A DNA stretch of 62,928 nucleotides, counting the filler, from Stramenopiles sp. TOSAG23-6 (taxonomy: Eukaryota): the NCBI GenBank assembly GCA_900128565.1. It is 44 parts of 44 records of this genome, joined end to end, with 100 filler letters (N's around TTAATTAATTAA, not from the genome) between each part and the next. Parts side by side here need not be neighbours in the genome. Positions count along the whole stretch, not along the records: positions 60,187 to 61,507 come from LT639247.1; positions 61,608 to 62,928 come from LT639248.1; 42 more parts are not named here. One strand, 5' to 3'. The notes under the pieces are model-generated. The model was not told where the DNA came from. It saw nothing but the letters and a program-made list of their open reading frames with translations, and made no database searches. Of this stretch, positions 10,416 through 61,722 are shown piece by piece (position 1 is the first letter of the stretch; every line of letters starts with the position of its first letter). The position numbers were made by a program, and so were the translations under genes.

Positions 10416-11464
10416 CTAAGTTTTGATATGGCGGCTCTTGCAGCTCTACCTCTTGCAAGTGCTTGAAGTTTTTTTATTGCTGCTATTTTTCTTGTCGCTT
10501 CCCTCAAAATGTTTGATATTTCACTATGACTAGGTAGCATTTCTGCAAGCTTCAGAGGTGTGTTGCCGTTTTTATCTGGAATATTTGGATTTGCCCCATT
10601 TTTAAGGAAAAGTTTTGCCATTTTAATATTATTCTTAAATACAACAATGAACAGAGGTGCGAATCCGCTTTTATCTGGAATATATGGATTTGCACCATTT
10701 TCAAGCAAAAGCTTTGCCATTTTAAAATTATCATCGTGTACAGCCCTGTACAGAGGTGTATATCCTTTTTTATCTTTAATATCTGGATTTGCACCATTTT
10801 CAAGAAAACGTTTTGCCATTTCAGTTTTATTATCAGATACAGCACTGAACAGAGGTGTATATCCGTTTTCATCTTTAATATCTGGATTTGCACCATTTTC
10901 AAGGAAACGTTGCATCATTTCAGTATTATTATCATATATTGCTATACCCAAAAGTGACTGTTTACCAATTGAAGTATTTAGCATATCGTTTTTCTCATCT
11001 TTTTTCATATCCCTTAGTATATCATATCCAAAATTTTCTCTGTTGATTTGGGCAGCAAGACCAAGTAGATCTGTTCTTACTTCAACTGTAGGTCCACAGG
11101 TTTCATAAGAAGCTGTATAAAATACAGGCTCTGAATCTTTCGCCAATCGTTCATACTCAAAGTTTCGGAAACTAACTCTTTTAGCTGCTTGTTCATTTAC
11201 AGGGTCTCCCGTTGTCTCTTTATTATATTCTTGAATTTCAGCAAAAAGACCATTTACTGTCTTTGGTTTGGTATCTTGAGGATTTGAAAAAGCTGCCATT
11301 GCCAAGAGACCAGCCATGTATGTTAAACGTGATGGGTCGATGGACCCAATCATAGCTATATTTGTTCCTTTTCCATTTTTTTTCATTTCTTTTAGATAGT
11401 CAACAATTTTACTCCCATAACATGAACCAGATACAATAGCAATTGGAGTATCTTTGGAGAAACG
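10400..11464 (-). CDS. Ankyrin-repeat protein with C-terminal IQ motif
   Basis: About five GxTPL..A......MAK.LLENGANP repeats; IKKLQALARGRAAR is an IQ motif; intronless. Confidence 0.85.
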   Translation of the reverse strand, partial: RFSKDTPIAIVSGSCYGSKIVDYLKEMKKNGKGTNIAMIGSIDPSRLTYMAGLLAMAAFSNPQDTKPKTVNGLFAEIQEYNKETTGDPVNEQAAKRVSFRNFEYERLAKDSEPVFYTASYETCGPTVEVRTDLLGLAAQINRENFGYDILRDMKKDEKNDMLNTSIGKQSLLGIAIYDNNTEMMQRFLENGANPDIKDENGYTPLFSAVSDNKTEMAKRFLENGANPDIKDKKGYTPLYRAVHDDNFKMAKLLLENGANPYIPDKSGFAPLFIVVFKNNIKMAKLFLKNGANPNIPDKNGNTPLKLAEMLPSHSEISNILREATRKIAAIKKLQALARGRAARAAISKLRKQIG

Positions 11465-15887: not shown

Positions 15888-18800
15888 TCACTTTTATTAG
15901 CAAGGAAAAAACTACGAATTGCTCCGCTATTTGGAGTTTCATCTATAACGATTGCTCGGTCTGGTGTTGTCATTCTACAAGTATATATCCCCACAGTATG
16001 ACTGTTAGACTTCGTTGTGCCAGCAACGCTAACAGTATGTAATACGTCCTTTTGCTTCACAGTATTATTAGTACTAGTAAGTCGATTATTTATATCTCGA
16101 AATCGAAATCCCGTTACAAAAAGATTCGAAAGAAGGAAAAACGTTTTGGCCAAAGAGGCAGCCTGGCAGGTTTGTTTGATTTTCGCGAAGATGATTGATC
16201 GGCCAGAATACTAATATATTTCACTACGAAGCGCACATATAGGTATTACTTAAATATACTGAGGAGGCGCTCATAAGATAACCAAAATGAAGAAAGCTAC
16301 AGGAAATACTGCGTTGCCTCTATCCAATGTGCGCGTGTCATGCAAAGATTGCTTTGAAAAATGCAATTCTGTTTCTCTTTGTATACCAGCTATTAAAGAC
16401 CTTGCCACTCGCTGGTTAAATACAGAACAAATATCAACATTCTCGGCTAACATGTACGACGTAAACCTACCTCTAAAATTTGAAAATATCAATGATGAAA
16501 TTAATTTTATTGCTTTAGTAAACCTTACTCGTTTTGGATCAGGCTATGCTACAGAATTTCGAAAGTTGACTGGAGATTGGCGTGGAGCATTAGCTGCGGC
16601 TCAATTTGGAGTGATTGGTCTACATTTAAGCGGTTCACTTGATGCTCGACGTATGCGGGGTTTATCTGTATCTGATGTGGGATCACTATTCGAAATCCCA
16701 CTTTTTGAAGATGTGCCAACCTCTGTCAGTGGGTGCTATCGACAGGAGAAATCTTCTCTCTATACACTTGCAGAGAATTTAACAGCAGTTCTAAACACTT
16801 CTGGAAAAGAGCTTAACGACAGAGGTTATACAGATTTTGCAAGCTTCATTTGCAAGACTTTGGCAGAATGTCACCAATCATCTAAAATTCATGAAAATCC
16901 TACTTCAGTGTTAGTACAGAGCCTTGCTTCCATGTTCTATGGATTTTGTGACGAAATAGTTGTAGCTCGAAGCGAAGGAGAATTTGGAAAACTCGTGAAC
17001 AAAATTTCCTACGAAAAACAAATTGAATCCTGTACAGTTGAAGACATCGAAAGTGATGGAAGAGATGAACTTTATATAACAACTTTCTATTCTAAAGCAC
17101 AATCACTTGTACTAGACTTACATAGAAGATTTTCATCAGGATTCCACAAAATCCACAAAAACTACAAAGACTCTGATAATGATGTGAAAATATTGAATCA
17201 AAACTCTGATAATGATGTGAAAATNNNNNNNNNNNNNNNNNNNNNNNNNNNNNNNNNNNNNNNNNNNNTTAATTAATTAANNNNNNNNNNNNNNNNNNNN
17301 NNNNNNNNNNNNNNNNNNNNNNNNTCACTTTTATTAGCAAGGAAAAAACTACGAATTGCTCCGCTATTTGGAGTTTCATCTATAACGATTGCTCGGTCTG
17401 GTGTTGTCATTCTACAAGTATATATCCCCACAGTATGACTGTTAGACTTCGTTGTGCCAGCAACGCTAACAGTATGTAATACGTCCTTTTGCTTCACAGT
17501 ATTATTAGTACTAGTAAGTCGATTATTTATATCTCGAAATCGAAATCCCGTTACAAAAAGATTCGAAAGAAGGAAAAACGTTTTGGCCAAAGAGGCAGCC
17601 TGGCAGGTTTGTTTGATTTTCGCGAAGATGATTGATCGGCCAGAATACTAATATATTTCACTACGAAGCGCACATATAGGTATTACTTAAATATACTGAG
17701 GAGGCGCTCATAAGATAACCAAAATGAAGAAAGCTACAGGAAATACTGCGTTGCCTCTATCCAATGTGCGCGTGTCATGCAAAGATTGCTTTGAAAAATG
17801 CAATTCTGTTTCTCTTTGTATACCAGCTATTAAAGACCTTGCCACTCGCTGGTTAAATACAGAACAAATATCAACATTCTCGGCTAACATGTACGACGTA
17901 AACCTACCTCTAAAATTTGAAAATATCAATGATGAAATTAATTTTATTGCTTTAGTAAACCTTACTCGTTTTGGATCAGGCTATGCTACAGAATTTCGAA
18001 AGTTGACTGGAGATTGGCGTGGAGCATTAGCTGCGGCTCAATTTGGAGTGATTGGTCTACATTTAAGCGGTTCACTTGATGCTCGACGTATGCGGGGTTT
18101 ATCTGTATCTGATGTGGGATCACTATTCGAAATCCCACTTTTTGAAGATGTGCCAACCTCTGTCAGTGGGTGCTATCGACAGGAGAAATCTTCTCTCTAT
18201 ACACTTGCAGAGAATTTAACAGCAGTTCTAAACACTTCTGGAAAAGAGCTTAACGACAGAGGTTATACAGATTTTGCAAGCTTCATTTGCAAGACTTTGG
18301 CAGAATGTCACCAATCATCTAAAATTCATGAAAATCCTACTTCAGTGTTAGTACAGAGCCTTGCTTCCATGTTCTATGGATTTTGTGACGAAATAGTTGT
18401 AGCTCGAAGCGAAGGAGAATTTGGAAAACTCGTGAACAAAATTTCCTACGAAAAACAAATTGAATCCTGTACAGTTGAAGACATCGAAAGTGATGGAAGA
18501 GATGAACTTTATATAACAACTTTCTATTCTAAAGCACAATCACTTGTACTAGACTTACATAGAAGATTTTCATCAGGATTCCACAAAATCCACAAAAACT
18601 ACAAAGACTCTGATAATGATGTGAAAATATTGAATCAAAACTCTGATAATGATGTGAAAATNNNNNNNNNNNNNNNNNNNNNNNNNNNNNNNNNNNNNNN
18701 NNNNNTTAATTAATTAANNNNNNNNNNNNNNNNNNNNNNNNNNNNNNNNNNNNNNNNNNNNTCACTTTTATTAGCAAGGAAAAAACTACGAATTGCTCCG

Positions 18801-21535
18801 CTATTTGGAGTTTCATCTATAACGATTGCTCGGTCTGGTGTTGTCATTCTACAAGTATATATCCCCACAGTATGACTGTTAGACTTCGTTGTGCCAGCAA
18901 CGCTAACAGTATGTAATACGTCCTTTTGCTTCACAGTATTATTAGTACTAGTAAGTCGATTATTTATATCTCGAAATCGAAATCCCGTTACAAAAAGATT
19001 CGAAAGAAGGAAAAACGTTTTGGCCAAAGAGGCAGCCTGGCAGGTTTGTTTGATTTTCGCGAAGATGATTGATCGGCCAGAATACTAATATATTTCACTA
19101 CGAAGCGCACATATAGGTATTACTTAAATATACTGAGGAGGCGCTCATAAGATAACCAAAATGAAGAAAGCTACAGGAAATACTGCGTTGCCTCTATCCA
19201 ATGTGCGCGTGTCATGCAAAGATTGCTTTGAAAAATGCAATTCTGTTTCTCTTTGTATACCAGCTATTAAAGACCTTGCCACTCGCTGGTTAAATACAGA
19301 ACAAATATCAACATTCTCGGCTAACATGTACGACGTAAACCTACCTCTAAAATTTGAAAATATCAATGATGAAATTAATTTTATTGCTTTAGTAAACCTT
19401 ACTCGTTTTGGATCAGGCTATGCTACAGAATTTCGAAAGTTGACTGGAGATTGGCGTGGAGCATTAGCTGCGGCTCAATTTGGAGTGATTGGTCTACATT
19501 TAAGCGGTTCACTTGATGCTCGACGTATGCGGGGTTTATCTGTATCTGATGTGGGATCACTATTCGAAATCCCACTTTTTGAAGATGTGCCAACCTCTGT
19601 CAGTGGGTGCTATCGACAGGAGAAATCTTCTCTCTATACACTTGCAGAGAATTTAACAGCAGTTCTAAACACTTCTGGAAAAGAGCTTAACGACAGAGGT
19701 TATACAGATTTTGCAAGCTTCATTTGCAAGACTTTGGCAGAATGTCACCAATCATCTAAAATTCATGAAAATCCTACTTCAGTGTTAGTACAGAGCCTTG
19801 CTTCCATGTTCTATGGATTTTGTGACGAAATAGTTGTAGCTCGAAGCGAAGGAGAATTTGGAAAACTCGTGAACAAAATTTCCTACGAAAAACAAATTGA
19901 ATCCTGTACAGTTGAAGACATCGAAAGTGATGGAAGAGATGAACTTTATATAACAACTTTCTATTCTAAAGCACAATCACTTGTACTAGACTTACATAGA
20001 AGATTTTCATCAGGATTCCACAAAATCCACAAAAACTACAAAGACTCTGATAATGATGTGAAAATATTGAATCAAAACTCTGATAATGATGTGAAAATNN
20101 NNNNNNNNNNNNNNNNNNNNNNNNNNNNNNNNNNNNNNNNNNTTAATTAATTAANNNNNNNNNNNNNNNNNNNNNNNNNNNNNNNNNNNNNNNNNNNNTC
20201 ACTTTTATTAGCAAGGAAAAAACTACGAATTGCTCCGCTATTTGGAGTTTCATCTATAACGATTGCTCGGTCTGGTGTTGTCATTCTACAAGTATATATC
20301 CCCACAGTATGACTGTTAGACTTCGTTGTGCCAGCAACGCTAACAGTATGTAATACGTCCTTTTGCTTCACAGTATTATTAGTACTAGTAAGTCGATTAT
20401 TTATATCTCGAAATCGAAATCCCGTTACAAAAAGATTCGAAAGAAGGAAAAACGTTTTGGCCAAAGAGGCAGCCTGGCAGGTTTGTTTGATTTTCGCGAA
20501 GATGATTGATCGGCCAGAATACTAATATATTTCACTACGAAGCGCACATATAGGTATTACTTAAATATACTGAGGAGGCGCTCATAAGATAACCAAAATG
20601 AAGAAAGCTACAGGAAATACTGCGTTGCCTCTATCCAATGTGCGCGTGTCATGCAAAGATTGCTTTGAAAAATGCAATTCTGTTTCTCTTTGTATACCAG
20701 CTATTAAAGACCTTGCCACTCGCTGGTTAAATACAGAACAAATATCAACATTCTCGGCTAACATGTACGACGTAAACCTACCTCTAAAATTTGAAAATAT
20801 CAATGATGAAATTAATTTTATTGCTTTAGTAAACCTTACTCGTTTTGGATCAGGCTATGCTACAGAATTTCGAAAGTTGACTGGAGATTGGCGTGGAGCA
20901 TTAGCTGCGGCTCAATTTGGAGTGATTGGTCTACATTTAAGCGGTTCACTTGATGCTCGACGTATGCGGGGTTTATCTGTATCTGATGTGGGATCACTAT
21001 TCGAAATCCCACTTTTTGAAGATGTGCCAACCTCTGTCAGTGGGTGCTATCGACAGGAGAAATCTTCTCTCTATACACTTGCAGAGAATTTAACAGCAGT
21101 TCTAAACACTTCTGGAAAAGAGCTTAACGACAGAGGTTATACAGATTTTGCAAGCTTCATTTGCAAGACTTTGGCAGAATGTCACCAATCATCTAAAATT
21201 CATGAAAATCCTACTTCAGTGTTAGTACAGAGCCTTGCTTCCATGTTCTATGGATTTTGTGACGAAATAGTTGTAGCTCGAAGCGAAGGAGAATTTGGAA
21301 AACTCGTGAACAAAATTTCCTACGAAAAACAAATTGAATCCTGTACAGTTGAAGACATCGAAAGTGATGGAAGAGATGAACTTTATATAACAACTTTCTA
21401 TTCTAAAGCACAATCACTTGTACTAGACTTACATAGAAGATTTTCATCAGGATTCCACAAAATCCACAAAAACTACAAAGACTCTGATAATGATGTGAAA
21501 ATATTGAATCAAAACTCTGATAATGATGTGAAAAT
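15888..21535. repeat. Four identical copies of one 1337-bp contig (redundant assembly)
   Basis: 15888-17224, 17325-18661, 18762-20098 and 20199-21535 have the same sequence and ends, separated by linkers. Confidence 0.95.
16287..17224 (+). CDS. Queuosine-salvage (DUF2419/QNG1-related) family protein, 3'-truncated; identical copies start at 17724, 19161 and 20598
   Basis: INFIALVNLTRFGSGY..., DARRMRGLS..VGSLFEIP and FYSKAQSLVLDLHRRF resemble the Q-salvage family. Confidence 0.5.
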
Positions 21536-21709
21536 NNNNNNNNNNNNNNNNNNNNNNNNNNNNNNNNNNNNNNNNNNNNTTAATTAATTAANNNNNNNNN
21601 NNNNNNNNNNNNNNNNNNNNNNNNNNNNNNNNNNNTTTCNAATTTNTTTTTTTTTCGTACGAAATTTTGTACCTAACAAATTTCGAATTCAATGTTTTTT
21701 ACAATATAT

Positions 21710-22969
21710 GTTTTACGACCAACAACAACAGATGTTGACGGTAAGCAATCAAAATCACAAAATAATTTACCAACAAAACAAGAAGTTGTTGTATGGTTGA
21801 CTCTAACTTCACACCAACAAGCATTATATCATGCAATGCTTGAAAAGACACAAGAAGAACAAGATAGGAGAGACGATATCGCTGCAGAAAATGGAGATAT
21901 TGCCGAAGGAAGATGTATCTTAAAAGAATTATGTGAGCTAGTACAGATATGTAATCATCCTCTTCTTGTTGCTGAAAAAGAATTTGGTAAGAAAGATTTG
22001 TCAAGTTCGAAAGATGTCCATAGACGTGATAATACGAATCGTAAGTATCGCGATTTTGACATGTATTATGAAAATGATGAAAGTATTTCATCCAATAGTG
22101 ATAATGATATAAGAAATATTGAAATGAATAGAAATGTTGAATCGGATGTAGAGTCTGATATTGAAAACAAGAGACTTGAGGATGATGTGAAATCAAAAAA
22201 TGTACGTAAATTGTTATTATCGGCCTCGAGAAAAACACCTGCAAAGATTGAATTTGTTAGTGCTTTGTTACGGAATTTACATACTGAAGGGCACAGAGTA
22301 TTAATATTTAGTAGATCTTGTAGAATGCTTGATCTCATAGAGAATTTCGTACTTAAAACTGCCAAATATAAACATTATAGACTTGATGGAAGTATTCAAG
22401 ATGCATCAGAAAGAGCTCAGTTGATTGAAAAGTTTAATCGAAAAAAGGATATTTTTTGTTTTTTAATTACTACACAATGTGGAGGTGTAGGTATTAATCT
22501 AACAGGTGCCGATCGAGTCATTATGCTTGATCCTGGTTGGAATCCAGCAGCTGATGAGCAAGCTGTTGATAGAGTATATCGAATTGGTCAAACTCGGCCA
22601 GTATTGGTATATAGGTTAGTTACATGTACGTTTTCACATCATAAATTTATTAATTGTTTTTTTCATAGGAAATTTCGTACCTAATGATTTTTTTCATGAT
22701 TTCNTTTTTTTTTTCACAATACATGTGGTGGCGCAGAGGAACATATTTATAGACGTCAGATTTTTAAAGGATCTTTGAGTCGTTCAGCAATTGAGCAAGA
22801 TTTTAAAGCAACGAGACATGTATGTTTTACTTTTTTTGAATTTCAATTTTTTTTTCGTACAAAATTTTGTACGTAACAAAAAAAACAAAAAAAACATATT
22901 TTTCACAATACATTTCAAAGCAAAGTGTGGCAGTTCCAGTGGAGTCAAAGCAAAGTGTGGCAGTTCCAG
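21710..22969 (+). CDS. SNF2-family helicase C-terminal half (ERCC6/ERCC6L-like); copies in the next three contigs
   Basis: ICNHP, HRVLIFS, RLDGS, GGVGINLTGADRV, DPGWNPAADEQAVDRVYRIGQ; VYRLVTC|GGAEEHIYRRQIFKG restored across GT-AT intron 22626-22724. Confidence 0.9.
22626..22724 (+). mobile_element. Representative introner-like GT-AT intron (more than 50 core-motif copies in the window by eye count)
   Basis: GTACGTTTT...GAAATTTCGTACCTAAT...TTTTCACAATACAT; removal restores SNF2 VTCGGAEE. Confidence 0.75.
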
Positions 22970-25900
22970 NNNNNNNNNNNNNNNNNNNNNNNNNNNNNNN
23001 NNNNNNNNNNNNNTTAATTAATTAANNNNNNNNNNNNNNNNNNNNNNNNNNNNNNNNNNNNNNNNNNNNTTTCNAATTTNTTTTTTTTTCGTACGAAATT
23101 TTGTACCTAACAAATTTCGAATTCAATGTTTTTTACAATATATGTTTTACGACCAACAACAACAGATGTTGACGGTAAGCAATCAAAATCACAAAATAAT
23201 TTACCAACAAAACAAGAAGTTGTTGTATGGTTGACTCTAACTTCACACCAACAAGCATTATATCATGCAATGCTTGAAAAGACACAAGAAGAACAAGATA
23301 GGAGAGACGATATCGCTGCAGAAAATGGAGATATTGCCGAAGGAAGATGTATCTTAAAAGAATTATGTGAGCTAGTACAGATATGTAATCATCCTCTTCT
23401 TGTTGCTGAAAAAGAATTTGGTAAGAAAGATTTGTCAAGTTCGAAAGATGTCCATAGACGTGATAATACGAATCGTAAGTATCGCGATTTTGACATGTAT
23501 TATGAAAATGATGAAAGTATTTCATCCAATAGTGATAATGATATAAGAAATATTGAAATGAATAGAAATGTTGAATCGGATGTAGAGTCTGATATTGAAA
23601 ACAAGAGACTTGAGGATGATGTGAAATCAAAAAATGTACGTAAATTGTTATTATCGGCCTCGAGAAAAACACCTGCAAAGATTGAATTTGTTAGTGCTTT
23701 GTTACGGAATTTACATACTGAAGGGCACAGAGTATTAATATTTAGTAGATCTTGTAGAATGCTTGATCTCATAGAGAATTTCGTACTTAAAACTGCCAAA
23801 TATAAACATTATAGACTTGATGGAAGTATTCAAGATGCATCAGAAAGAGCTCAGTTGATTGAAAAGTTTAATCGAAAAAAGGATATTTTTTGTTTTTTAA
23901 TTACTACACAATGTGGAGGTGTAGGTATTAATCTAACAGGTGCCGATCGAGTCATTATGCTTGATCCTGGTTGGAATCCAGCAGCTGATGAGCAAGCTGT
24001 TGATAGAGTATATCGAATTGGTCAAACTCGGCCAGTATTGGTATATAGGTTAGTTACATGTACGTTTTCACATCATAAATTTATTAATTGTTTTTTTCAT
24101 AGGAAATTTCGTACCTAATGATTTTTTTCATGATTTCNTTTTTTTTTTCACAATACATGTGGTGGCGCAGAGGAACATATTTATAGACGTCAGATTTTTA
24201 AAGGATCTTTGAGTCGTTCAGCAATTGAGCAAGATTTTAAAGCAACGAGACATGTATGTTTTACTTTTTTTGAATTTCAATTTTTTTTTCGTACAAAATT
24301 TTGTACGTAACAAAAAAAACAAAAAAAACATATTTTTCACAATACATTTCAAAGCAAAGTGTGGCAGTTCCAGTGGAGTCAAAGCAAAGTGTGGCAGTTC
24401 CAGNNNNNNNNNNNNNNNNNNNNNNNNNNNNNNNNNNNNNNNNNNNNTTAATTAATTAANNNNNNNNNNNNNNNNNNNNNNNNNNNNNNNNNNNNNNNNN
24501 NNNTTTCGAATTTATTTTTTTTTCGTACGAAATTTTGTACCTAACAAATTTCGAATTCAATGTTTTTTACAATATATGTTTTACGACCAACAACAACAGA
24601 TGTTGACGGTAAGCAATCAAAATCACAAAATAATTTACCAACAAAACAAGAAGTTGTTGTATGGTTGACTCTAACTTCACACCAACAAGCATTATATCAT
24701 GCAATGCTTGAAAAGACACAAGAAGAACAAGATAGGAGAGACGATATCGCTGCAGAAAATGGAGATATTGCCGAAGGAAGATGTATCTTAAAAGAATTAT
24801 GTGAGCTAGTACAGATATGTAATCATCCTCTTCTTGTTGCTGAAAAAGAATTTGGTAAGAAAGATTTGTCAAGTTCGAAAGATGTCCATAGACGTGATAA
24901 TACGAATCGTAAGTATCGCGATTTTGACATGTATTATGAAAATGATGAAAGTATTTCATCCAATAGTGATAATGATATAAGAAATATTGAAATGAATAGA
25001 AATGTTGAATCGGATGTAGAGTCTGATATTGAAAACAAGAGACTTGAGGATGATGTGAAATCAAAAAATGTACGTAAATTGTTATTATCGGCCTCGAGAA
25101 AAACACCTGCAAAGATTGAATTTGTTAGTGCTTTGTTACGGAATTTACATACTGAAGGGCACAGAGTATTAATATTTAGTAGATCTTGTAGAATGCTTGA
25201 TCTCATAGAGAATTTCGTACTTAAAACTGCCAAATATAAACATTATAGACTTGATGGAAGTATTCAAGATGCATCAGAAAGAGCTCAGTTGATTGAAAAG
25301 TTTAATCGAAAAAAGGATATTTTTTGTTTTTTAATTACTACACAATGTGGAGGTGTAGGTATTAATCTAACAGGTGCCGATCGAGTCATTATGCTTGATC
25401 CTGGTTGGAATCCAGCAGCTGATGAGCAAGCTGTTGATAGAGTATATCGAATTGGTCAAACTCGGCCAGTATTGGTATATAGGTTAGTTACATGTACGTT
25501 TTCACATCATAAATTTATTAATTGTTTTTTTCATAGGAAATTTCGTACCTAATGATTTTTTTCATGATTTCNTTTTTTTTTTCACAATACATGTGGTGGC
25601 GCAGAGGAACATATTTATAGACGTCAGATTTTTAAAGGATCTTTGAGTCGTTCAGCAATTGAGCAAGATTTTAAAGCAACGAGACATGTATGTTTTACTT
25701 TTTTTGAATTTCAATTTTTTTTTCGTACAAAATTTTGTACGTAACAAAAAAAACAAAAAAAACATATTTTTCACAATACATTTCAAAGCAAAGTGTGGCA
25801 GTTCCAGTGGAGTCAAAGCAAAGTGTGGCAGTTCCAGNNNNNNNNNNNNNNNNNNNNNNNNNNNNNNNNNNNNNNNNNNNNTTAATTAATTAANNNNNNN

Positions 25901-27468
25901 NNNNNNNNNNNNNNNNNNNNNNNNNNNNNNNNNNNNNTTTCGAATTTNTTTTTTTTTCGTACGAAATTTTGTACCTAACAAATTTCGAATTCAATGTTTT
26001 TTACAATATATGTTTTACGACCAACAACAACAGATGTTGACGGTAAGCAATCAAAATCACAAAATAATTTACCAACAAAACAAGAAGTTGTTGTATGGTT
26101 GACTCTAACTTCACACCAACAAGCATTATATCATGCAATGCTTGAAAAGACACAAGAAGAACAAGATAGGAGAGACGATATCGCTGCAGAAAATGGAGAT
26201 ATTGCCGAAGGAAGATGTATCTTAAAAGAATTATGTGAGCTAGTACAGATATGTAATCATCCTCTTCTTGTTGCTGAAAAAGAATTTGGTAAGAAAGATT
26301 TGTCAAGTTCGAAAGATGTCCATAGACGTGATAATACGAATCGTAAGTATCGCGATTTTGACATGTATTATGAAAATGATGAAAGTATTTCATCCAATAG
26401 TGATAATGATATAAGAAATATTGAAATGAATAGAAATGTTGAATCGGATGTAGAGTCTGATATTGAAAACAAGAGACTTGAGGATGATGTGAAATCAAAA
26501 AATGTACGTAAATTGTTATTATCGGCCTCGAGAAAAACACCTGCAAAGATTGAATTTGTTAGTGCTTTGTTACGGAATTTACATACTGAAGGGCACAGAG
26601 TATTAATATTTAGTAGATCTTGTAGAATGCTTGATCTCATAGAGAATTTCGTACTTAAAACTGCCAAATATAAACATTATAGACTTGATGGAAGTATTCA
26701 AGATGCATCAGAAAGAGCTCAGTTGATTGAAAAGTTTAATCGAAAAAAGGATATTTTTTGTTTTTTAATTACTACACAATGTGGAGGTGTAGGTATTAAT
26801 CTAACAGGTGCCGATCGAGTCATTATGCTTGATCCTGGTTGGAATCCAGCAGCTGATGAGCAAGCTGTTGATAGAGTATATCGAATTGGTCAAACTCGGC
26901 CAGTATTGGTATATAGGTTAGTTACATGTACGTTTTCACATCATAAATTTATTAATTGTTTTTTTCATAGGAAATTTCGTACCTAATGATTTTTTTCATG
27001 ATTTCNTTTTTTTTTTCACAATACATGTGGTGGCGCAGAGGAACATATTTATAGACGTCAGATTTTTAAAGGATCTTTGAGTCGTTCAGCAATTGAGCAA
27101 GATTTTAAAGCAACGAGACATGTATGTTTTACTTTTTTTGAATTTCAATTTTTTTTTCGTACAAAATTTTGTACGTAACAAAAAAAACAAAAAAAACATA
27201 TTTTTCACAATACATTTCAAAGCAAAGTGTGGCAGTTCCAGTGGAGTCAAAGCAAAGTGTGGCAGTTCCAGNNNNNNNNNNNNNNNNNNNNNNNNNNNNN
27301 NNNNNNNNNNNNNNNTTAATTAATTAANNNNNNNNNNNNNNNNNNNNNNNNNNNNNNNNNNNNNNNNNNNNTTTTTTTTTTTTTTTTTTTTTTTTTAAAT
27401 CGTTAGGTACAAAATTTCGTATGAAAAAAAAATTACTAAAAAAAAAAAATTAATAATGAAAAACCTAT

Positions 27469-35869: not shown

Positions 35870-36116
35870 NNNNNNNNNNNNNNNNNNNNNNNNNNNNNNN
35901 NNNNNNNNNNNNNTTAATTAATTAANNNNNNNNNNNNNNNNNNNNNNNNNNNNNNNNNNNNNNNNNNNNAAAATTTTATAAATTTCAAAAATTTTTTTTT
36001 TTTTTTTTTTTGTTGTTAGGGGTACAAATTTTTATAATAATTTTTTTTTTTTTTTTTTTTTTTTGTTGTTGTTAGGTATAAAATTTCATACATTTTTTTT
36101 TAATAATAAATACGTA

Positions 36117-37167
36117 CATGAAGAGGTTATAGCAGCTACTCCAATTCCAATGTCTGTCAAAATTTTACACAAATCACCATATAATGTACATTTATTTTTA
36201 GAAAATATTTCAAAAAAATCTAAAAAATTTTGTTAGGTACAAAATTTCGTACGAAAAAAAAATTCTATTTTTTTGTAAAAAAAAAAAAAAAAATTGTTAG
36301 GTACAAAATTTCGTACGAAAAAAAAATTCAAATTTAAAAAAAAAAAAAATAAAACGTACAATGTGTGATTAACTGATCGTTATCAAAATTCAAAAACATA
36401 TCAACCATATTATGAGGCACTTCGCACCAAATACGAATTTCTTGCAAAATTTGAAATTTTATTTTTGGTAAACTTTCAGATGAATGTAGTATTGGATAAA
36501 TTGCTTTTTCCCAAAGAACAGCCAATTCAATTTTAATAAGAGCACGAAATCGGTTCCATAACACACTAAGCAGTTTTGTTCCTTCAGAAAATATGGGTAA
36601 TAATGTTTTTGTTACACATGTACTTTGTAACTATATATTATTATTCTTTTTGTTATTGGTTAGTTGGTTGGTTAGGTACAAAAAAATTAAATTTCAAAAA
36701 AAAAAAAATTTTAATAAATTTCAAAAAAAAAAAAAATTGAAAAAAAATTGAAAAAAAAAAAAAAATTGAAAAAAAAAAAATTTTAACTTTAAATTTCAAA
36801 AAAATATTCAAAAAGACTACATACATGACAAAGATTTCCCAACAACAAGAATAGCCATTCGACGTACACACAAACAAAAACGCCTTGAAGAACAAAAAAC
36901 ATCACCACTATCATTTAATGTATTTTGGAAAAATATTTCAAAAAAAAAATTTTAGAAAAAATTGTTAGGTACAAAATTTTTTTACCAAAAAAAAAAAAAA
37001 TTTCGATTTTTTTTTTACCGGAAAAAAAAAAAAATAAAACATACATAGCTTTGCTATACCACGAATTACGCAGGTTTTCAATTCAATATCTTCAGATAAA
37101 TGTGTTGTTTGACTTGCTAATTTCCAAATTGAATTTTGATCAACTGGATGAGGATGAGGCCAATGTC
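36117..37167 (-). CDS. Sec7 Arf-GEF (BIG/GBF/MON2 family) N-terminal region fragment; duplicate contig at 37398-38725
   Basis: LWNRFRALIKIELAVL...P..MVDMFLNFDND (HUS-box-like); five or more family introns. Confidence 0.65.
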
Positions 37168-38825
37168 CATGTACATGAAAAAATATTAAAAAAAAAAAAA
37201 AATGTTAGGTTTATATATATTTTTTTTTTGGAAGAATTTTTTTTTTTTTTGGAAAATTTNTTAGGTACAAAATTTACTATGAAAAAAACAAAAAAAANNN
37301 NNNNNNNNNNNNNNNNNNNNNNNNNNNNNNNNNNNNNNNNNTTAATTAATTAANNNNNNNNNNNNNNNNNNNNNNNNNNNNNNNNNNNNNNNNNNNNAAA
37401 ATTTTATAAATTTCAAAAATTTTTTTTTTTTTTTTTTTTGTTGTTAGGGGTACAAATTTTTATAATAATTTTTTTTTTTTTTTTTTTTTTTTGTTGTTGT
37501 TAGGTATAAAATTTCATACATTTTTTTTTAATAATAAATACGTACATGAAGAGGTTATAGCAGCTACTCCAATTCCAATGTCTGTCAAAATTTTACACAA
37601 ATCACCATATAATGTACATTTATTTTTAGAAAATATTTCAAAAAAATCTAAAAAATTTTGTTAGGTACAAAATTTCGTACGAAAAAAAAATTCTATTTTT
37701 TTGTAAAAAAAAAAAAAAAAATTGTTAGGTACAAAATTTCGTACGAAAAAAAAATTCAAATTTAAAAAAAAAAAAAATAAAACGTACAATGTGTGATTAA
37801 CTGATCGTTATCAAAATTCAAAAACATATCAACCATATTATGAGGCACTTCGCACCAAATACGAATTTCTTGCAAAATTTGAAATTTTATTTTTGGTAAA
37901 CTTTCAGATGAATGTAGTATTGGATAAATTGCTTTTTCCCAAAGAACAGCCAATTCAATTTTAATAAGAGCACGAAATCGGTTCCATAACACACTAAGCA
38001 GTTTTGTTCCTTCAGAAAATATGGGTAATAATGTTTTTGTTACACATGTACTTTGTAACTATATATTATTATTCTTTTTGTTATTGGTTAGTTGGTTGGT
38101 TAGGTACAAAAAAATTAAATTTCAAAAAAAAAAAAATTTTAATAAATTTCAAAAAAAAAAAAAATTGAAAAAAAATTGAAAAAAAAAAAAAAATTGAAAA
38201 AAAAAAAATTTTAACTTTAAATTTCAAAAAAATATTCAAAAAGACTACATACATGACAAAGATTTCCCAACAACAAGAATAGCCATTCGACGTACACACA
38301 AACAAAAACGCCTTGAAGAACAAAAAACATCACCACTATCATTTAATGTATTTTGGAAAAATATTTCAAAAAAAAAATTTTAGAAAAAATTGTTAGGTAC
38401 AAAATTTTTTTACCAAAAAAAAAAAAAATTTCGATTTTTTTTTTACCGGAAAAAAAAAAAAATAAAACATACATAGCTTTGCTATACCACGAATTACGCA
38501 GGTTTTCAATTCAATATCTTCAGATAAATGTGTTGTTTGACTTGCTAATTTCCAAATTGAATTTTGATCAACTGGATGAGGATGAGGCCAATGTCCATGT
38601 ACATGAAAAAATATTAAAAAAAAAAAAAAATGTTAGGTTTATATATATTTTTTTTTTGGAAGAATTTTTTTTTTTTTTGGAAAATTTGTTAGGTACAAAA
38701 TTTACTATGAAAAAAACAAAAAAAANNNNNNNNNNNNNNNNNNNNNNNNNNNNNNNNNNNNNNNNNNNNTTAATTAATTAANNNNNNNNNNNNNNNNNNN
38801 NNNNNNNNNNNNNNNNNNNNNNNNN

Positions 38826-40152
38826 GTGCAACTACTTCCGCATGACCTTTTTCAGCAGCATCGAACAGTGCATTATTTTTCCACTCATTTGACAAGACAT
38901 CAATAAGTTTTGATACTACTGTTTGATGACCATTTCGTGTAGCAACATACAACGGTGTGAATCCATTTTTGTTAGCCTTATTTACATCAGCACCATTAGC
39001 GATAAGTAATTCAACTACTTCTGTATGACCCTTTTGAGAAGCAATAAGCAATGGCGTAACTCCGTTTTGTTTAGGCTGATTGACAACAGCATCAGCAGCA
39101 ATGAGTTCTTCAACTATTCCTACATGACCAAAATTTGAAGCAATAAACAATGGGGTGGAACCGTTCTTAGTAGGCTGGTTGACATCAGCATCTCCTTCAA
39201 TAAGCAATTCAACAATTCCTTCGTTACCCTTATGTGAAGCAACATACAATGGGGTATATTCGCCTTCTGCAGCCTGATTGACATAAGCACCAGTATCAAT
39301 AAGTAGTTCAACTACATCAACATGATCATTCTGTGAAGCAGCATACAATGGAGTATATCCGTCATTTGTTGCCTTATTGAGATCAGCACCTTTTTCAAGA
39401 AGTAATTCAACTATATCAACATGACCATGTTGTGAAGCAATCAACAATGGTGTACCTCCGATTTTTTCAGCCTGATTGACATCAGCACCAGCAGTGATAA
39501 GTTGTGTAACTACTTTACGATGGCCATTCTCCGAAGCAACAAGCAATGGCGTAACTCCGCTTTTAGTAGCCTGATTGACAAAAGCATCAGCAGCAATGAG
39601 TTCTTCAACTATTCCTACATAACTCTTCTGTGAAGCGACAAACAATGGGGTATATCCGTCTTTTTCAGCCTTGTTAATATCAATATCATCTGCATCGATA
39701 AGTAGTTCAACTACTCCAACATGACCAAAATTTGAAGCAATAAACAATGGGGTGGAACCGATCTTAGTAGGCTGGTTGACATCAGCATCTTCTTCAATAA
39801 GCAATGCAACAATTCCTTCATTACCCTTATGTGAAGCAATATACAATGGGGTAGCTCCGCTTTTTTCAGCCTGGTTGACATCAGCACTAGCATCGATAAG
39901 TTGTTTAACTACTTTTACATGACCAAAATTTGAAGCAATAAACAATGGGGTGGCACCCATCTCAGTAGGCTGGTTGACATCAGCATCTTCTTCAATAAGC
40001 AATTCAACTACTCTTTCATGACCATTTTGTGAAGCAACATACAATGGGGTAACACTGATTTCAGTCTGATTGACATCAGCACCTGCTCTAAGAAGTCGTG
40101 CAACTACTTCCGCATGACCTTTTTCAGCAGCATCGAACAGTGCATTATTTTT
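38826..40152 (-). CDS. Ankyrin-repeat protein, internal fragment (~13 repeats)
   Basis: Repeated GxTPLxxASxxGHxxVVxLLIxxxADVN; intronless. Confidence 0.95.
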
Positions 40153-43104: not shown

Positions 43105-44429
43105 AGTACAGTTAATGATTTGTTAATTTGTTTTGCTTCCATAAATCGTTCCCCTTTCACACCCTTTTTTTATTGAAATATACCAAATAAAATGTTTTTG
43201 TTGATATTAGGTACAAAATTTCGTATGAAAAAAAAATGAAAAAAAAAATTAAAAAAAATTGTTAGGTACAAAATTTCGTATGAAAAAAAAATGAAAAAAA
43301 AAAAATTTAAAAAAAAAATTAAAAAAACTTACACTTTTTCGTGTTCTCTCAGATCCAGCTAAATCAACAAAAAGAAACTGTTGCCTAATTAAAATCCGTG
43401 GATTTCGTGTACTTTCGTTTTTTTCTGAGTATTTGTTTTTGGTAGAAAAACTTGTAAGATGAAGTTTAACAAGGCAGTGTGATCGAGACGAATGATCATT
43501 CAGTTTATGACCAGCAGAACGTCTTGATACAATATTTAAAAAAAAAAAAAAAAAAAATCGTTAGGTACAAAATTTCGTACGAAAAAATATTCNAAAAANA
43601 TTCAAAAAAAAAAATCGAAAAAAAATCGNAAAAGATGTTGAAGAACATANATGCTTCCACATGCATTACAAATTGAGCAACATCAGTCTCATTTTTTATC
43701 GGCCANAGTTTTTCACCGACAGTCGCAAANTNTCTATTTTTCGTGTCTTTCTGATTTTGAGTCAAAGTATTTAAATTTTTTGAATTTTTTGAATTTTTTG
43801 AATTTTTTGAATTTTTTGAATTTTTTAAATTTTTTGAATTTTTATTCTTACATTCTAAAGTTAACCGACTTTTTGCTTGAAAACAACGAAAACATTGACA
43901 TGTAGAAGGATGTGCAAAATCACCNCCACCTGTTGTTCTGTGATCTCTTGCTCCGAATTCGCATGTTTAGTAAAAAAAAAAAAAATCAAATATTTTTTGT
44001 TAGGTACAAAATTACCTACAAAAAAATTTCGAACAAAAAAAAATTGAAATTTGAAAAAAAAATGAAAAAACGTACAACCACCTCCTCGTACCACAACTGT
44101 ATTTCTAGGTTTCGTTCTGGATATTTGTAATGGAGATGAATCATTCAGCAAATCATATGCCACATTATTGTATACTTCAATCGCAGTGGCCTGTAATGTT
44201 GCACCATTTGCTACGTTGGATCGTAGCAAAGAAAGAGCTATGCGAGGTAAAATTCCCCATGCATTTGGCACATTTTTAACATTTGGAACATTTTTAACAT
44301 TTTGCACATTTTTAACATTTGGCATACAAACACTATCTTTAGCACTACTCTTAAGCGCCGATTCAGTAAGACAACCTTTTGGTCCAAACATTGTGTACGT
44401 CTTGCCAGAACCTGTCTGTCCGTATGCTA
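43105..44429 (-). CDS. Kinesin motor domain fragment; duplicate contig at 44530-45854
   Basis: AYGQTGSGKTYTMFG, EVYNN.AYDLL, NDHSSRSH, FVDLAGSER, INKSLTVL across three introns. Confidence 0.92.
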
Positions 44430-45954
44430 NNNNNNNNNNNNNNNNNNNNNNNNNNNNNNNNNNNNNNNNNNNNTTAATTAATTAANNNNNNNNNNNNNNN
44501 NNNNNNNNNNNNNNNNNNNNNNNNNNNNNAGTACAGTTAATGATTTGTTAATTTGTTTTGCTTCCATAAATCGTTCCCCTTTCACACCCTTTTTTTATTG
44601 AAATATACCAAATAAAATGTTTTTGTTGATATTAGGTACAAAATTTCGTATGAAAAAAAAATGAAAAAAAAAATTAAAAAAAATTGTTAGGTACAAAATT
44701 TCGTATGAAAAAAAAATGAAAAAAAAAAAATTTAAAAAAAAAATTAAAAAAACTTACACTTTTTCGTGTTCTCTCAGATCCAGCTAAATCAACAAAAAGA
44801 AACTGTTGCCTAATTAAAATCCGTGGATTTCGTGTACTTTCGTTTTTTTCTGAGTATTTGTTTTTGGTAGAAAAACTTGTAAGATGAAGTTTAACAAGGC
44901 AGTGTGATCGAGACGAATGATCATTCAGTTTATGACCAGCAGAACGTCTTGATACAATATTTAAAAAAAAAAAAAAAAAAAATCGTTAGGTACAAAATTT
45001 CGTACGAAAAAATATTCNAAAAANATTCAAAAAAAAAAANCGAAAAAAAATCGNAAAAGATGTTGAAGAACATANATGCTTCCACATGCATTACAAATTG
45101 AGCAACATCAGTCTCATTTTTTATCGGCCANAGTTTTTCACCGACAGTCGCAAANTNTCTATTTTTCGTGTCTTTCTGATTTTGAGTCAAAGTATTTAAA
45201 TTTTTTGAATTTTTTGAATTTTTTGAATTTTTTGAATTTTTTGAATTTTTTAAATTTTTTGAATTTTTATTCTTACATTCTAAAGTTAACCGACTTTTTG
45301 CTTGAAAACAACGAAAACATTGACATGTAGAAGGATGTGCAAAATCACCNCCACCTGTTGTTCTGTGATCTCTTGCTCCGAATTCGCATGTTTAGTAAAA
45401 AAAAAAAAAATCAAATATTTTTTGTTAGGTACAAAATTACCTACAAAAAAATTTCGAACAAAAAAAAATTGAAATTTGAAAAAAAAATGAAAAAACGTAC
45501 AACCACCTCCTCGTACCACAACTGTATTTCTAGGTTTCGTTCTGGATATTTGTAATGGAGATGAATCATTCAGCAAATCATATGCCACATTATTGTATAC
45601 TTCAATCGCAGTGGCCTGTAATGTTGCACCATTTGCTACGTTGGATCGTAGCAAAGAAAGAGCTATGCGAGGTAAAATTCCCCATGCATTTGGCACATTT
45701 TTAACATTTGGAACATTTTTAACATTTTGCACATTTTTAACATTTGGCATACAAACACTATCTTTAGCACTACTCTTAAGCGCCGATTCAGTAAGACAAC
45801 CTTTTGGTCCAAACATTGTGTACGTCTTGCCAGAACCTGTCTGTCCGTATGCTANNNNNNNNNNNNNNNNNNNNNNNNNNNNNNNNNNNNNNNNNNNNTT
45901 AATTAATTAANNNNNNNNNNNNNNNNNNNNNNNNNNNNNNNNNNNNNNNNNNNN

Positions 45955-60186: not shown

Positions 60187-61448
60187 GGGCTATAGGTGAA
60201 GTTGATCAAATCGAATTCAATCGTGTAGTCGATGTTGATAGAATCGATAATCATGCATTATCAACAAAAATCATTGATCAAGTGCAAGAGTATTTTACGG
60301 ATCTGCAACAAACAACAGAGTATTACCAAAAGTTACGTAATAGAGATTTCATATCGAAAACGGATATTGTTCTTTCTGGAGACGGAATCCGCGAACTTGC
60401 TCTTTTGTCAGGTCTTGTTCATGTAAAAGAAGTGTACGTTTTCGAATTTCAGTTATTGCGACTATTTTGAAAATGTTTTATATTTGATATTTCTCAATGA
60501 CTCAATATTTCAATGTTTTTATATCACTTCAAATATAGGTGGGTCGAAGAAAATCAAATTACAAGCCTTGTTGGATTACCAGCACTTCCTCAACTAAAAT
60601 TCTTGTACGCGATACTACTACCATTCGTCAATATAATCAACAATGTTTTATTGTTTTATATTCTATATTTTTCAATGACTCAATATTAGAATGTTTTTTA
60701 TATCACTACAAATATAGGTATCTCAGACATAATAAAATCAGAAGCATTCGCGGATTACCTGTACTTCCTCAACTGAAAGATTTGTACGTGATAATTGTAC
60801 CATTCTCTACTATAATCAACAATGTTTTATATTTAATATTTTTGAATGACTCAATATTATAATGTTTTTTATATCACTACAAATATAGGTGGCTAGATCA
60901 TAATCACATTACAAGCTTTCCTCAACTGACACAATTGTACGTGATAGTTGTACCATTCCTTAATATAATTAACAATGTTTTATATTCTATATTTTTCAAT
61001 GACTCAATATTATAATGTTTTTTATATCACTACAAATATAGGAGTCTCAGACATAATAAAATCAGAAGCATTCACGGATTACCAGTACTTCCTCAACTGA
61101 CAATATTGTACGTGATACTACTACCATTCTCTACTATAATTAACTATGTTTTATATTCTATATTTTCAATGACTCAATATTACAGTGTTATTTATATCAC
61201 TACAAATATAGGAGTCTCAGCAATAATCAAATTACAAGCTTTCACGGATTACCATTACTTCCTCAACTAGAATCGTTGTACGTGATACTACTACCATTCT
61301 CTACTATAATTAATTATGTTTTATATTCTATATTTTCTAATGACTCAATATTACAGTGTTATTTATATCACTTCAAATATAGGTTTCTCATGCATAATGA
61401 AATTACAAGCTTGGATGGCATACCAGTACTTCCTCAACTAAAATGGTT
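60187..61448 (+). CDS. Leucine-rich-repeat protein, one 22-aa LRR per exon (exons to 60433, 60539-60604, 60718-60783, 60889-60936, 61042-61107, 61212-61277, 61383-61448)
   Basis: Each phase-2 exon encodes LxLxxNxIxSxxGLPxLPQLxx; introns are GT-AG and near-identical. Confidence 0.85.
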
Positions 61449-61722
61449 GTACGTGATACTACTACCATTCTCTACTATAATTAACTATGTTTTATATTCT
61501 ATATTTTNNNNNNNNNNNNNNNNNNNNNNNNNNNNNNNNNNNNNNNNNNNNTTAATTAATTAANNNNNNNNNNNNNNNNNNNNNNNNNNNNNNNNNNNNN
61601 NNNNNNNAGGTCCATGAAATGTCAAAATATATTTCAAAATTTGAAATTTGTTAGGTACAAAACTATCTATGAAAACAAAATAGGTAAAAACTTCATAATG
61701 AATACAACGTACATGTTAGTGC

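Follow-up and report, generated by a model that had tools for sequence, protein, structure and literature searches.

How a gene comes to carry one leucine-rich repeat (LRR) per exon, with similar introns and variable exons, and what protein it encodes, is the question raised by a tandem array in the genome of Stramenopiles sp. TOSAG23-6 (GCA_900128565.1). An earlier note on this DNA had described units of about 170 bp, each made of an intron and a phase-2 LRR exon, and had proposed that they belong to a diversifying, immune-like receptor. The window, that is, the whole stretch of 62,928 nucleotides analyzed here, is a chain of contigs of about 1.3 kb with N/TTAATTAATTAA/N spacers between them, and because these are merely concatenated, the neighbors of the array are unrelated to it. 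The array occupies the entire contig G000:C614 (window 60187-61507) and is therefore cut at the contig end. Elsewhere in the window, groups of 2-4 equal-length contigs with the same ends (15888-21535, 21636-27271, 35970-38725 and 43105-45854) are redundant variants listed by the assembly, and one contig (55922-57244) has 49-53% GC against about 30% across the window and possibly comes from another organism. Tandem repeats of period 99 on the minus strand (10553-10938 and 38926-40119) are presumably ankyrin-repeat coding sequence.

The array is real: C614 contains six phase-2 LRR exons between GT-AG introns (Table 1), and the unit length given before agrees with the TRF result (period 171, 6.1 copies, 79% matches). 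Every LRR exon has the form N|21 codons|TT, five of them at 66 nt and one shortened by the in-frame 18-nt deletion that had been reported; the peptides quoted earlier are all encoded in these exons, and the spliced frame is free of stops. This layout would make in-frame skipping of LRR exons possible, and intron retention breaks the frame in five of the six complete introns.

Table 1. Layout of the C614 array along the window, with the members of the second Skp1-LRR family
Feature	Position or contig	Strand	Evidence
Large first coding exon, 3′ end (last part of helical region, first LRR half)	60187-60433	+	Overlap, Pfam
Intron 1, 105 nt, GT-AG, most divergent copy	60434-60538	+	
LRR exon 1, 66 nt	60539-60604	+	
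Intron 2, 113 nt, with 8-nt insertion	60605-60717	+	
LRR exon 2, 66 nt	60718-60783	+	
Intron 3, 105 nt	60784-60888	+	
LRR exon 3, 48 nt, in-frame 18-nt deletion on convex side	60889-60936	+	
Intron 4, 105 nt	60937-61041	+	
LRR exon 4, 66 nt	61042-61107	+	
Intron 5, 104 nt	61108-61211	+	
LRR exon 5, 66 nt	61212-61277	+	
Intron 6, 105 nt, the only one without in-frame stop or frameshift on retention	61278-61382	+	
LRR exon 6, 66 nt	61383-61448	+	
Intron 7, cut by contig end	61449-61507	+	
Family B members	C4959 (L062), C4597 (L063), C4771 (L057), C31; C3936		Skp1_POZ; C3936 by DNA match

All introns of the array have the form GTACG...AAATATAG. The five that lie between LRR exons are 87-96% identical to each other, and the first is 79-82% identical to these, so that the earlier description of the introns as homogenized is fair, while "near-identical" was too strong. 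They are also, as had been noted, unrelated to the dominant intron family of the window, whose core motif (with up to 4 mismatches) has 58 matches in the window and none in C614; conversely, with a cut-off of E<1, the window yielded no matches to an HMM built from 32 introns other than the 7 array introns. Matches to the introns of this gene family (family A) numbered at least 43, all of them on the 7 array contigs, which led us to reject a dispersed mobile element; at no fewer than 6 other motif sites the match was confined to the final 17-23 bases of the intron. An origin of the introns from decayed LRR coding sequence was likewise rejected, both for family A (alignment score 22.3 against 21.5±1.2 for shuffles) and for the second family described below, family B (16.2 against 17.2±1.1).

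The x positions of the concave strand are an established part of LRR structure, and with the repeat joined as LxxL|xLxxNxI by splicing, the variable codons on either side of the intron correspond to these positions. Among 30 distinct 66-nt exons (the 48-nt exon, three 69-nt exons and two exact duplicates being set aside), the five x codons ranked first of 20,349 five-codon sets for amino-acid entropy. In C614, pN at the x codons was 0.56 compared to a pS of 0.22 elsewhere, and across groupings the x-codon pN was 0.50-0.62, against 0.09-0.37 for pS in the remaining 16 codons and 0.09-0.16 for intron distance; the resulting ratio was 1.6-5.4, with bootstrap intervals above 1 in all five groupings. 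Maximum-likelihood omega at the x codons was 5.5-5.9 for 27 units with their following intron and 9.6 for 11 units (p<1e-12), compared to 0.94-1.19 outside them, in a codon test that assumes one tree although the units recombine, which can inflate omega. The clustering of variation on the concave face claimed earlier thus stands on entropy, pN/pS and the codon model alike, and the proposed check of dN/dS per LRR position gives an omega of about 6-10 at the x codons against about 1 elsewhere. The latter value means that purifying selection looks weak outside the x codons. A local mutational hotspot at the x codons is unlikely, since the interleaved L and N codons and the adjacent intron ends stay conserved. 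The x positions are also the most variable ones in family B. The pattern of substitution makes it likely that diversification has been driven by selection.

Unit number varies as well, as the note had anticipated: the sister contig C5693 shares its terminal 55 bases at either end with C614 but has eight units rather than six, only the last of which closely resembles a C614 unit while seven are unlike any. C5693 also contains a 326-bp exact internal repeat, which may be a short-read assembly artefact. Recombination among units, which had been supposed, was evident from the four-gamete test on 12 units, where 79 of 171 site pairs were incompatible (9 of 30 near pairs and 43 of 81 far pairs). Such frequent recombination supports shuffling but weakens the one-tree codon test.

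The remainder of the gene probably lies on other contigs. C614 overlaps C3997 and C3615 by 55 bp (2 N positions), and on these contigs one exon encodes a hydrophobic N-terminus, a Skp1_POZ domain, a helical region and a Pro/Glu-rich hinge, the Skp1_POZ match upstream of the C614 array having an E-value of 1.8e-10 in Pfam. This domain is above the Pfam cut-off in C3997 and C1915 and slightly below it in C340 and C3739. The paralogues C1915 and C340 have the same first exon together with LRR units on a single contig, so the architecture does not depend on the C614 overlap alone. C3997 and C3615 share 1328 bp and then diverge, and since the upstream contigs differ in this way, the evidence favors two loci rather than alleles for C614 and C5693. 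At the other end, C1684 has 12 LRR exons and a short last exon, beyond which the next long frame, by inspection, starts about 0.3 kb on. Two further LRR exons and a short end like that of C1684 are found on C2104/C775, where the C614 gene probably continues, a link that we infer because the exact overlap is only 19 bp long and lies inside the repeated intron. None of the 35 internal exons listed contains a stop, and the length of each is divisible by 3. In C457/C2515, a distant paralogue without introns, the parts follow in the same order within a single frame of 623 aa, with LRR matches present and a POZ match absent in Pfam. Taken together, we are highly confident of an architecture composed of a probable signal peptide, a Skp1-like BTB domain, a helical linker, an array of 22-residue LRRs and a short tail.

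Some irregular copies were also observed. The family A paralogue C3739 (L027/L064) has a frameshifting deletion in its first exon and a weak donor, and is a probable pseudogene. One donor in C1915 is GTTC, and in C1684 (L012), whose array is otherwise intact, two acceptors, those of LRR exons 1 and 11 counted along the array, have AT in place of AG. Behind window position 60539, contigs of runs X1 and X2 leave a loose end with a last-exon type (peptide GLSYNHITSD) that is absent from the assembled contigs examined, indicating at least one more family member.

The receptor of ROCO, TIR or kinase type that the earlier note had envisaged was not borne out. Pfam found no ROC-COR, TIR, kinase or NB-ARC domain in four N-terminal exons and two full-length intronless paralogues, the tail is short, and there was no membrane helix beyond the N-terminus, no later 19-residue hydropathy window exceeding 1.6. 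At the N-terminus itself, the 11-residue hydropathy peak reached 3.0 in three of five family-A-type proteins and 1.7 and 2.5 in the others, compared to 0.58 in the ordinary Skp1 of this genome, and on hydropathy, the sole basis used here, this stretch is a probable signal peptide. In family A it is followed by a loose xLR motif, missing from C1915, which recalls the oomycete RxLR.

Matching of the first-exon protein against PDB sequences placed 28 of 31 matches on Skp1 chains, covering query residues 9-102. A structure model had a pLDDT of 66 overall and mostly 80-92 across the POZ part, and its best fold matches were Skp1-containing entries, with a best E-value of only 0.002. The Skp1-type segments S-x-T-I-x-x-M, P-I-P and AANYL-like are retained in families A and B. 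As far as the available part of the source goes, PxPN is the Cul1-contacting motif of Skp1, and F-box binding is placed in its C-terminal helices (PMC1257465). The motif is partly kept in family A, as PLPV in the C614 gene and PLPK, PLSL and PVTN in paralogues, with erosion in C340 and C3739, and reads PLPN or PFPN in all four family B domains. The Skp1 C-terminal family with the F-box-binding helices (PF01466) was not detected by Pfam in these proteins. Relative to the Skp1 of SCF ligases as far as it is described there, they therefore share the core BTB fold and Skp1-type sequence but are without a detectable F-box-binding region and are fused to a binding module of their own.

A search of the assembly for Skp1_POZ returned 10 matches: four in family A, four in family B, an ordinary separate Skp1 (C1991) and a gene that we take to be Elongin-C-like (C45). 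Family B encodes a 21-residue LRR on 63-nt exons, and its introns of 131-132 nt interrupt the repeat at the same TT|G position as in family A with unrelated sequence, a relationship between the two sets of introns being rejected (26.6 against 26.3 for shuffles). Two members, C4959 and C4597, have both contig ends in common, and the hydrophobic N-terminus is more weakly kept than in family A. One further member, C31 (L061:1384-3603, minus strand), is intronless, 73-89% identical in the matched pieces, and encodes two tandem Skp1-LRR modules; all 10 of its repeat junctions listed read TT|G or TT|A, the very junctions that splicing would produce. The single-sequence model of this protein was poor (pLDDT 49.6), with the LRR part at about 70-84. 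One family B intron type also occurs, about 90% identical and in phase 2, in an unrelated FAD-dependent oxidoreductase gene (C1210, L072:1502-1611), which suggests that this intron may have transposed between genes. The simplest reading is that families A and B result from two separate intron gains followed by unit amplification; alternatively, C31 lost its introns by retroposition.

These genes do not come from bacterial contamination, which was rejected because their introns are spliceosomal and a eukaryotic CCT-beta gene is present on C340 as well. The named matches of the latter are mostly stramenopile, at about 70% identity, and in a tree of 26 rows it falls together with five sequences, apart from the named ochrophytes and oomycetes. 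Runs X1 and X2, which represent one sample, gave Logan contigs that agree with stretches of C614 at 0 differences, among them 60860-61000, which spans the shortened exon, and that contain both the C614 and the C5693 arms; this sample may be the source of the assembly itself and is therefore not independent support. Another study's seawater metagenome (X3, 70 contigs) also contained related units, among them some with indels of the C5693 type.

These observations suggest the following model. An intron would have entered one LRR at phase 2, and the exon-plus-intron unit would then have been amplified in tandem. As all units have equal phase, they could be gained, lost or mixed without frameshift, and the similar introns would provide homology for unequal crossing-over or gene conversion, which would add, remove and mix units while selection keeps the binding residues diverse. 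The encoded protein would replace Skp1 and an F-box protein within one chain, its Skp1-like domain docking on a Cullin-1 ligase and its LRRs recruiting a target for ubiquitination. Cullins act in the cytosol and nucleus, and a signal peptide would for this reason make most sense if the protein were passed into the cell of a host or prey, to act there as an effector engaged in an arms race with its targets in the host. Such a secreted cullin-hijacking effector falls at or just short of an even chance; the hydrophobic N-terminus could instead anchor the protein in a membrane and keep it in the protist's own cytosol. The best explanation overall, that the array is the shuffled, variable binding part of a Skp1-LRR gene for a secreted effector, we hold to be evenly balanced between right and wrong. 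More tentatively, and with rather less confidence, two families of secreted one-chain Skp1-LRR hijackers may have separately acquired an exon-per-repeat layout that reshuffles the target-binding face.

The closest rival to the receptor idea of the earlier note is cell-autonomous defense, in which the protein would be the protist's own one-chain ligase receptor, degrading fast-changing viral or bacterial proteins, with its N-terminus serving as an anchor or being bypassed. The diversification pattern is the same as in the brown-algal candidate immune genes, and the Skp1-like domain would meet cullins with no membrane to cross; cullin genes are present in the assembly, including a cullin N-terminus that is presumably Cul3-like. 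However, the short hydrophobic N-terminus has been kept across the family, more weakly in family B, and intracellular parasites or their secretomes are the source of the named analogues with such a layout, so that we regard own-cell defense as somewhat unlikely. It is less probable still that the protein is an extracellular adhesin or prey- or host-recognition protein whose Skp1-like domain persists as a structural relic, perhaps serving oligomerization, with no ubiquitination. The probable signal peptide and the variable LRRs would suit such a role, as would the erosion of PxPN in family A and the undetected POZ domain of C457; against this, there is no membrane helix to hold the protein at the surface (GPI signals lie outside the hydropathy test), and the Skp1-type segments named above persist in both families.

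A further alternative is that most of the turnover is neutral or that the genes are decaying, the selection signal arising from recombination and after-the-fact choice of sites. This would be in keeping with the omega near 1 outside the x codons, the frameshift in C3739 and the frequent recombination, and the x sites were named after the variation had been seen. Their position is nevertheless set by the LxxLxLxxN motif, in which they alternate with conserved L and N one codon apart; the adjoining intron ends are conserved, the internal exons listed remain open and in frame, and the same positions vary most in family B. We consider this alternative quite improbable, and take the secreted effector with a shuffled binding part as the preferred explanation.

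Both the exon layout and the domain fusion have counterparts in known systems. The likeness to brown-algal exon-per-LRR genes held up: from the parts of the two sources available, the ROCO genes of these stramenopiles share a phase-2 exon per LRR, a variable unit number and positive selection on the concave face, but have 72-nt exons and a ROC-COR GTPase where the present genes have 66-nt exons, a Skp1-like domain and a probable signal peptide; alternative splicing of the LRR exons has been shown there (PMC3341825, PMC11378527). Tetrahymena, in the available text, likewise has tandem exon-intron units with phase-2 introns and a variable unit number, attributed to ectopic recombination, but in thousands of genes, with a different unit length and no Skp1 fusion described, compared to about ten contigs here (PMC6564038). 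LRR receptor kinases, TLRs and NLRs differ in having a membrane helix with a kinase or TIR domain, or NB-ARC, none of which was found here.

With respect to the fusion, the accessible part of one report lists 17 ankyrin proteins with SKP1/BTB/POZ in the secretome of Plasmodiophora brassicae (PMC12503489), and a preprint, also available in part, describes PbAnk2 as highly polymorphic and terms part of it both SKP1-containing and SKP1-binding (bioRxiv 10.64898/2026.10.14.759018). These, too, are proteins of a protist secretome that combine a SKP1/BTB-type domain with a module of repeats for binding, but with ankyrin repeats instead of LRRs, in a rhizarian plant parasite, and with no exon-per-repeat layout in the material available. 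Chlamydial BTB-box/F-box repeat proteins, which the portion seen proposes as effectors, also have a cullin-adaptor domain and a repeat module in one chain (PMC4209131). So do database proteins combining Skp1_POZ with LRR, WD40 or ankyrin repeats, many of which start with a hydrophobic stretch, as in P0209 of Candidatus Dependentiae (hydrophobic N-terminus, Skp1_POZ and LRR); both these groups are bacterial and intronless, unlike the C614 gene. The Babela paper, in its available part, reports secreted ankyrin and ubiquitin-related proteins with no mention of a Skp1 fusion (PMC4378268). In profile comparison, the bacterial-type fusions resemble these proteins over 141 columns, all of them in the N-terminus and Skp1 domain, and the Skp1-domain tree does not fix the origin, so that common origin or transfer is possible at most.

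Wider searches gave few relatives. Word-based searches over 8000 and 1309 candidates turned up no relative, and a metagenome scan confirmed 0 of 594 stretches. An HMM scan gave 326 matches, and among the 150 listed only P0122 spans the entire first exon, the rest covering mainly the Skp1 domain; P0122, from a public assembly, is a near-copy of the C340 first-exon protein with few substitutions and an annotated end at the first intron. A GTDB scan with P0204 gave one LRR-only match, and the ESM Atlas gave only BTB/Skp1-type leads, at ≤0.90. In the literature searched, that of non-subscription journals, no description of intron homogenization in LRR arrays was found, and none of a Skp1 domain combined with one exon per LRR, although the Plasmodiophora supplement lists might contain Skp1-LRR proteins. 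Going by the available parts of the sources, both halves are known separately, as exon arrays in Ectocarpus and Tetrahymena and as secreted SKP1/BTB-ankyrin proteins in Plasmodiophora, and it is their joining that appears to be new.

Exon-per-LRR arrays have so far been read as immune-like receptor repertoires. In the present case the layout belongs to a protein whose build resembles that of the ubiquitin-ligase hijackers found in intracellular parasites. With intron-split and intronless paralogues, and with two families whose differing introns interrupt the same codon position, these genes offer a compact natural case for the origin of phase-2 LRR arrays. According to the part of one study that was available, several MAST-3 lineages are possibly epiphytic or parasitic (PMC5778133), which is relevant here only if the organism is a MAST-3. 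If secretion and Cul1 binding hold, these genes would be testable markers of parasitic or epibiotic life in poorly known plankton, and the targets of the LRRs would point to the host. If the effector reading is true, the diversity generator of candidate immune genes would be in use on the attacker's side, and the genes would be molecular evidence that an uncultured marine stramenopile lineage manipulates host cells.
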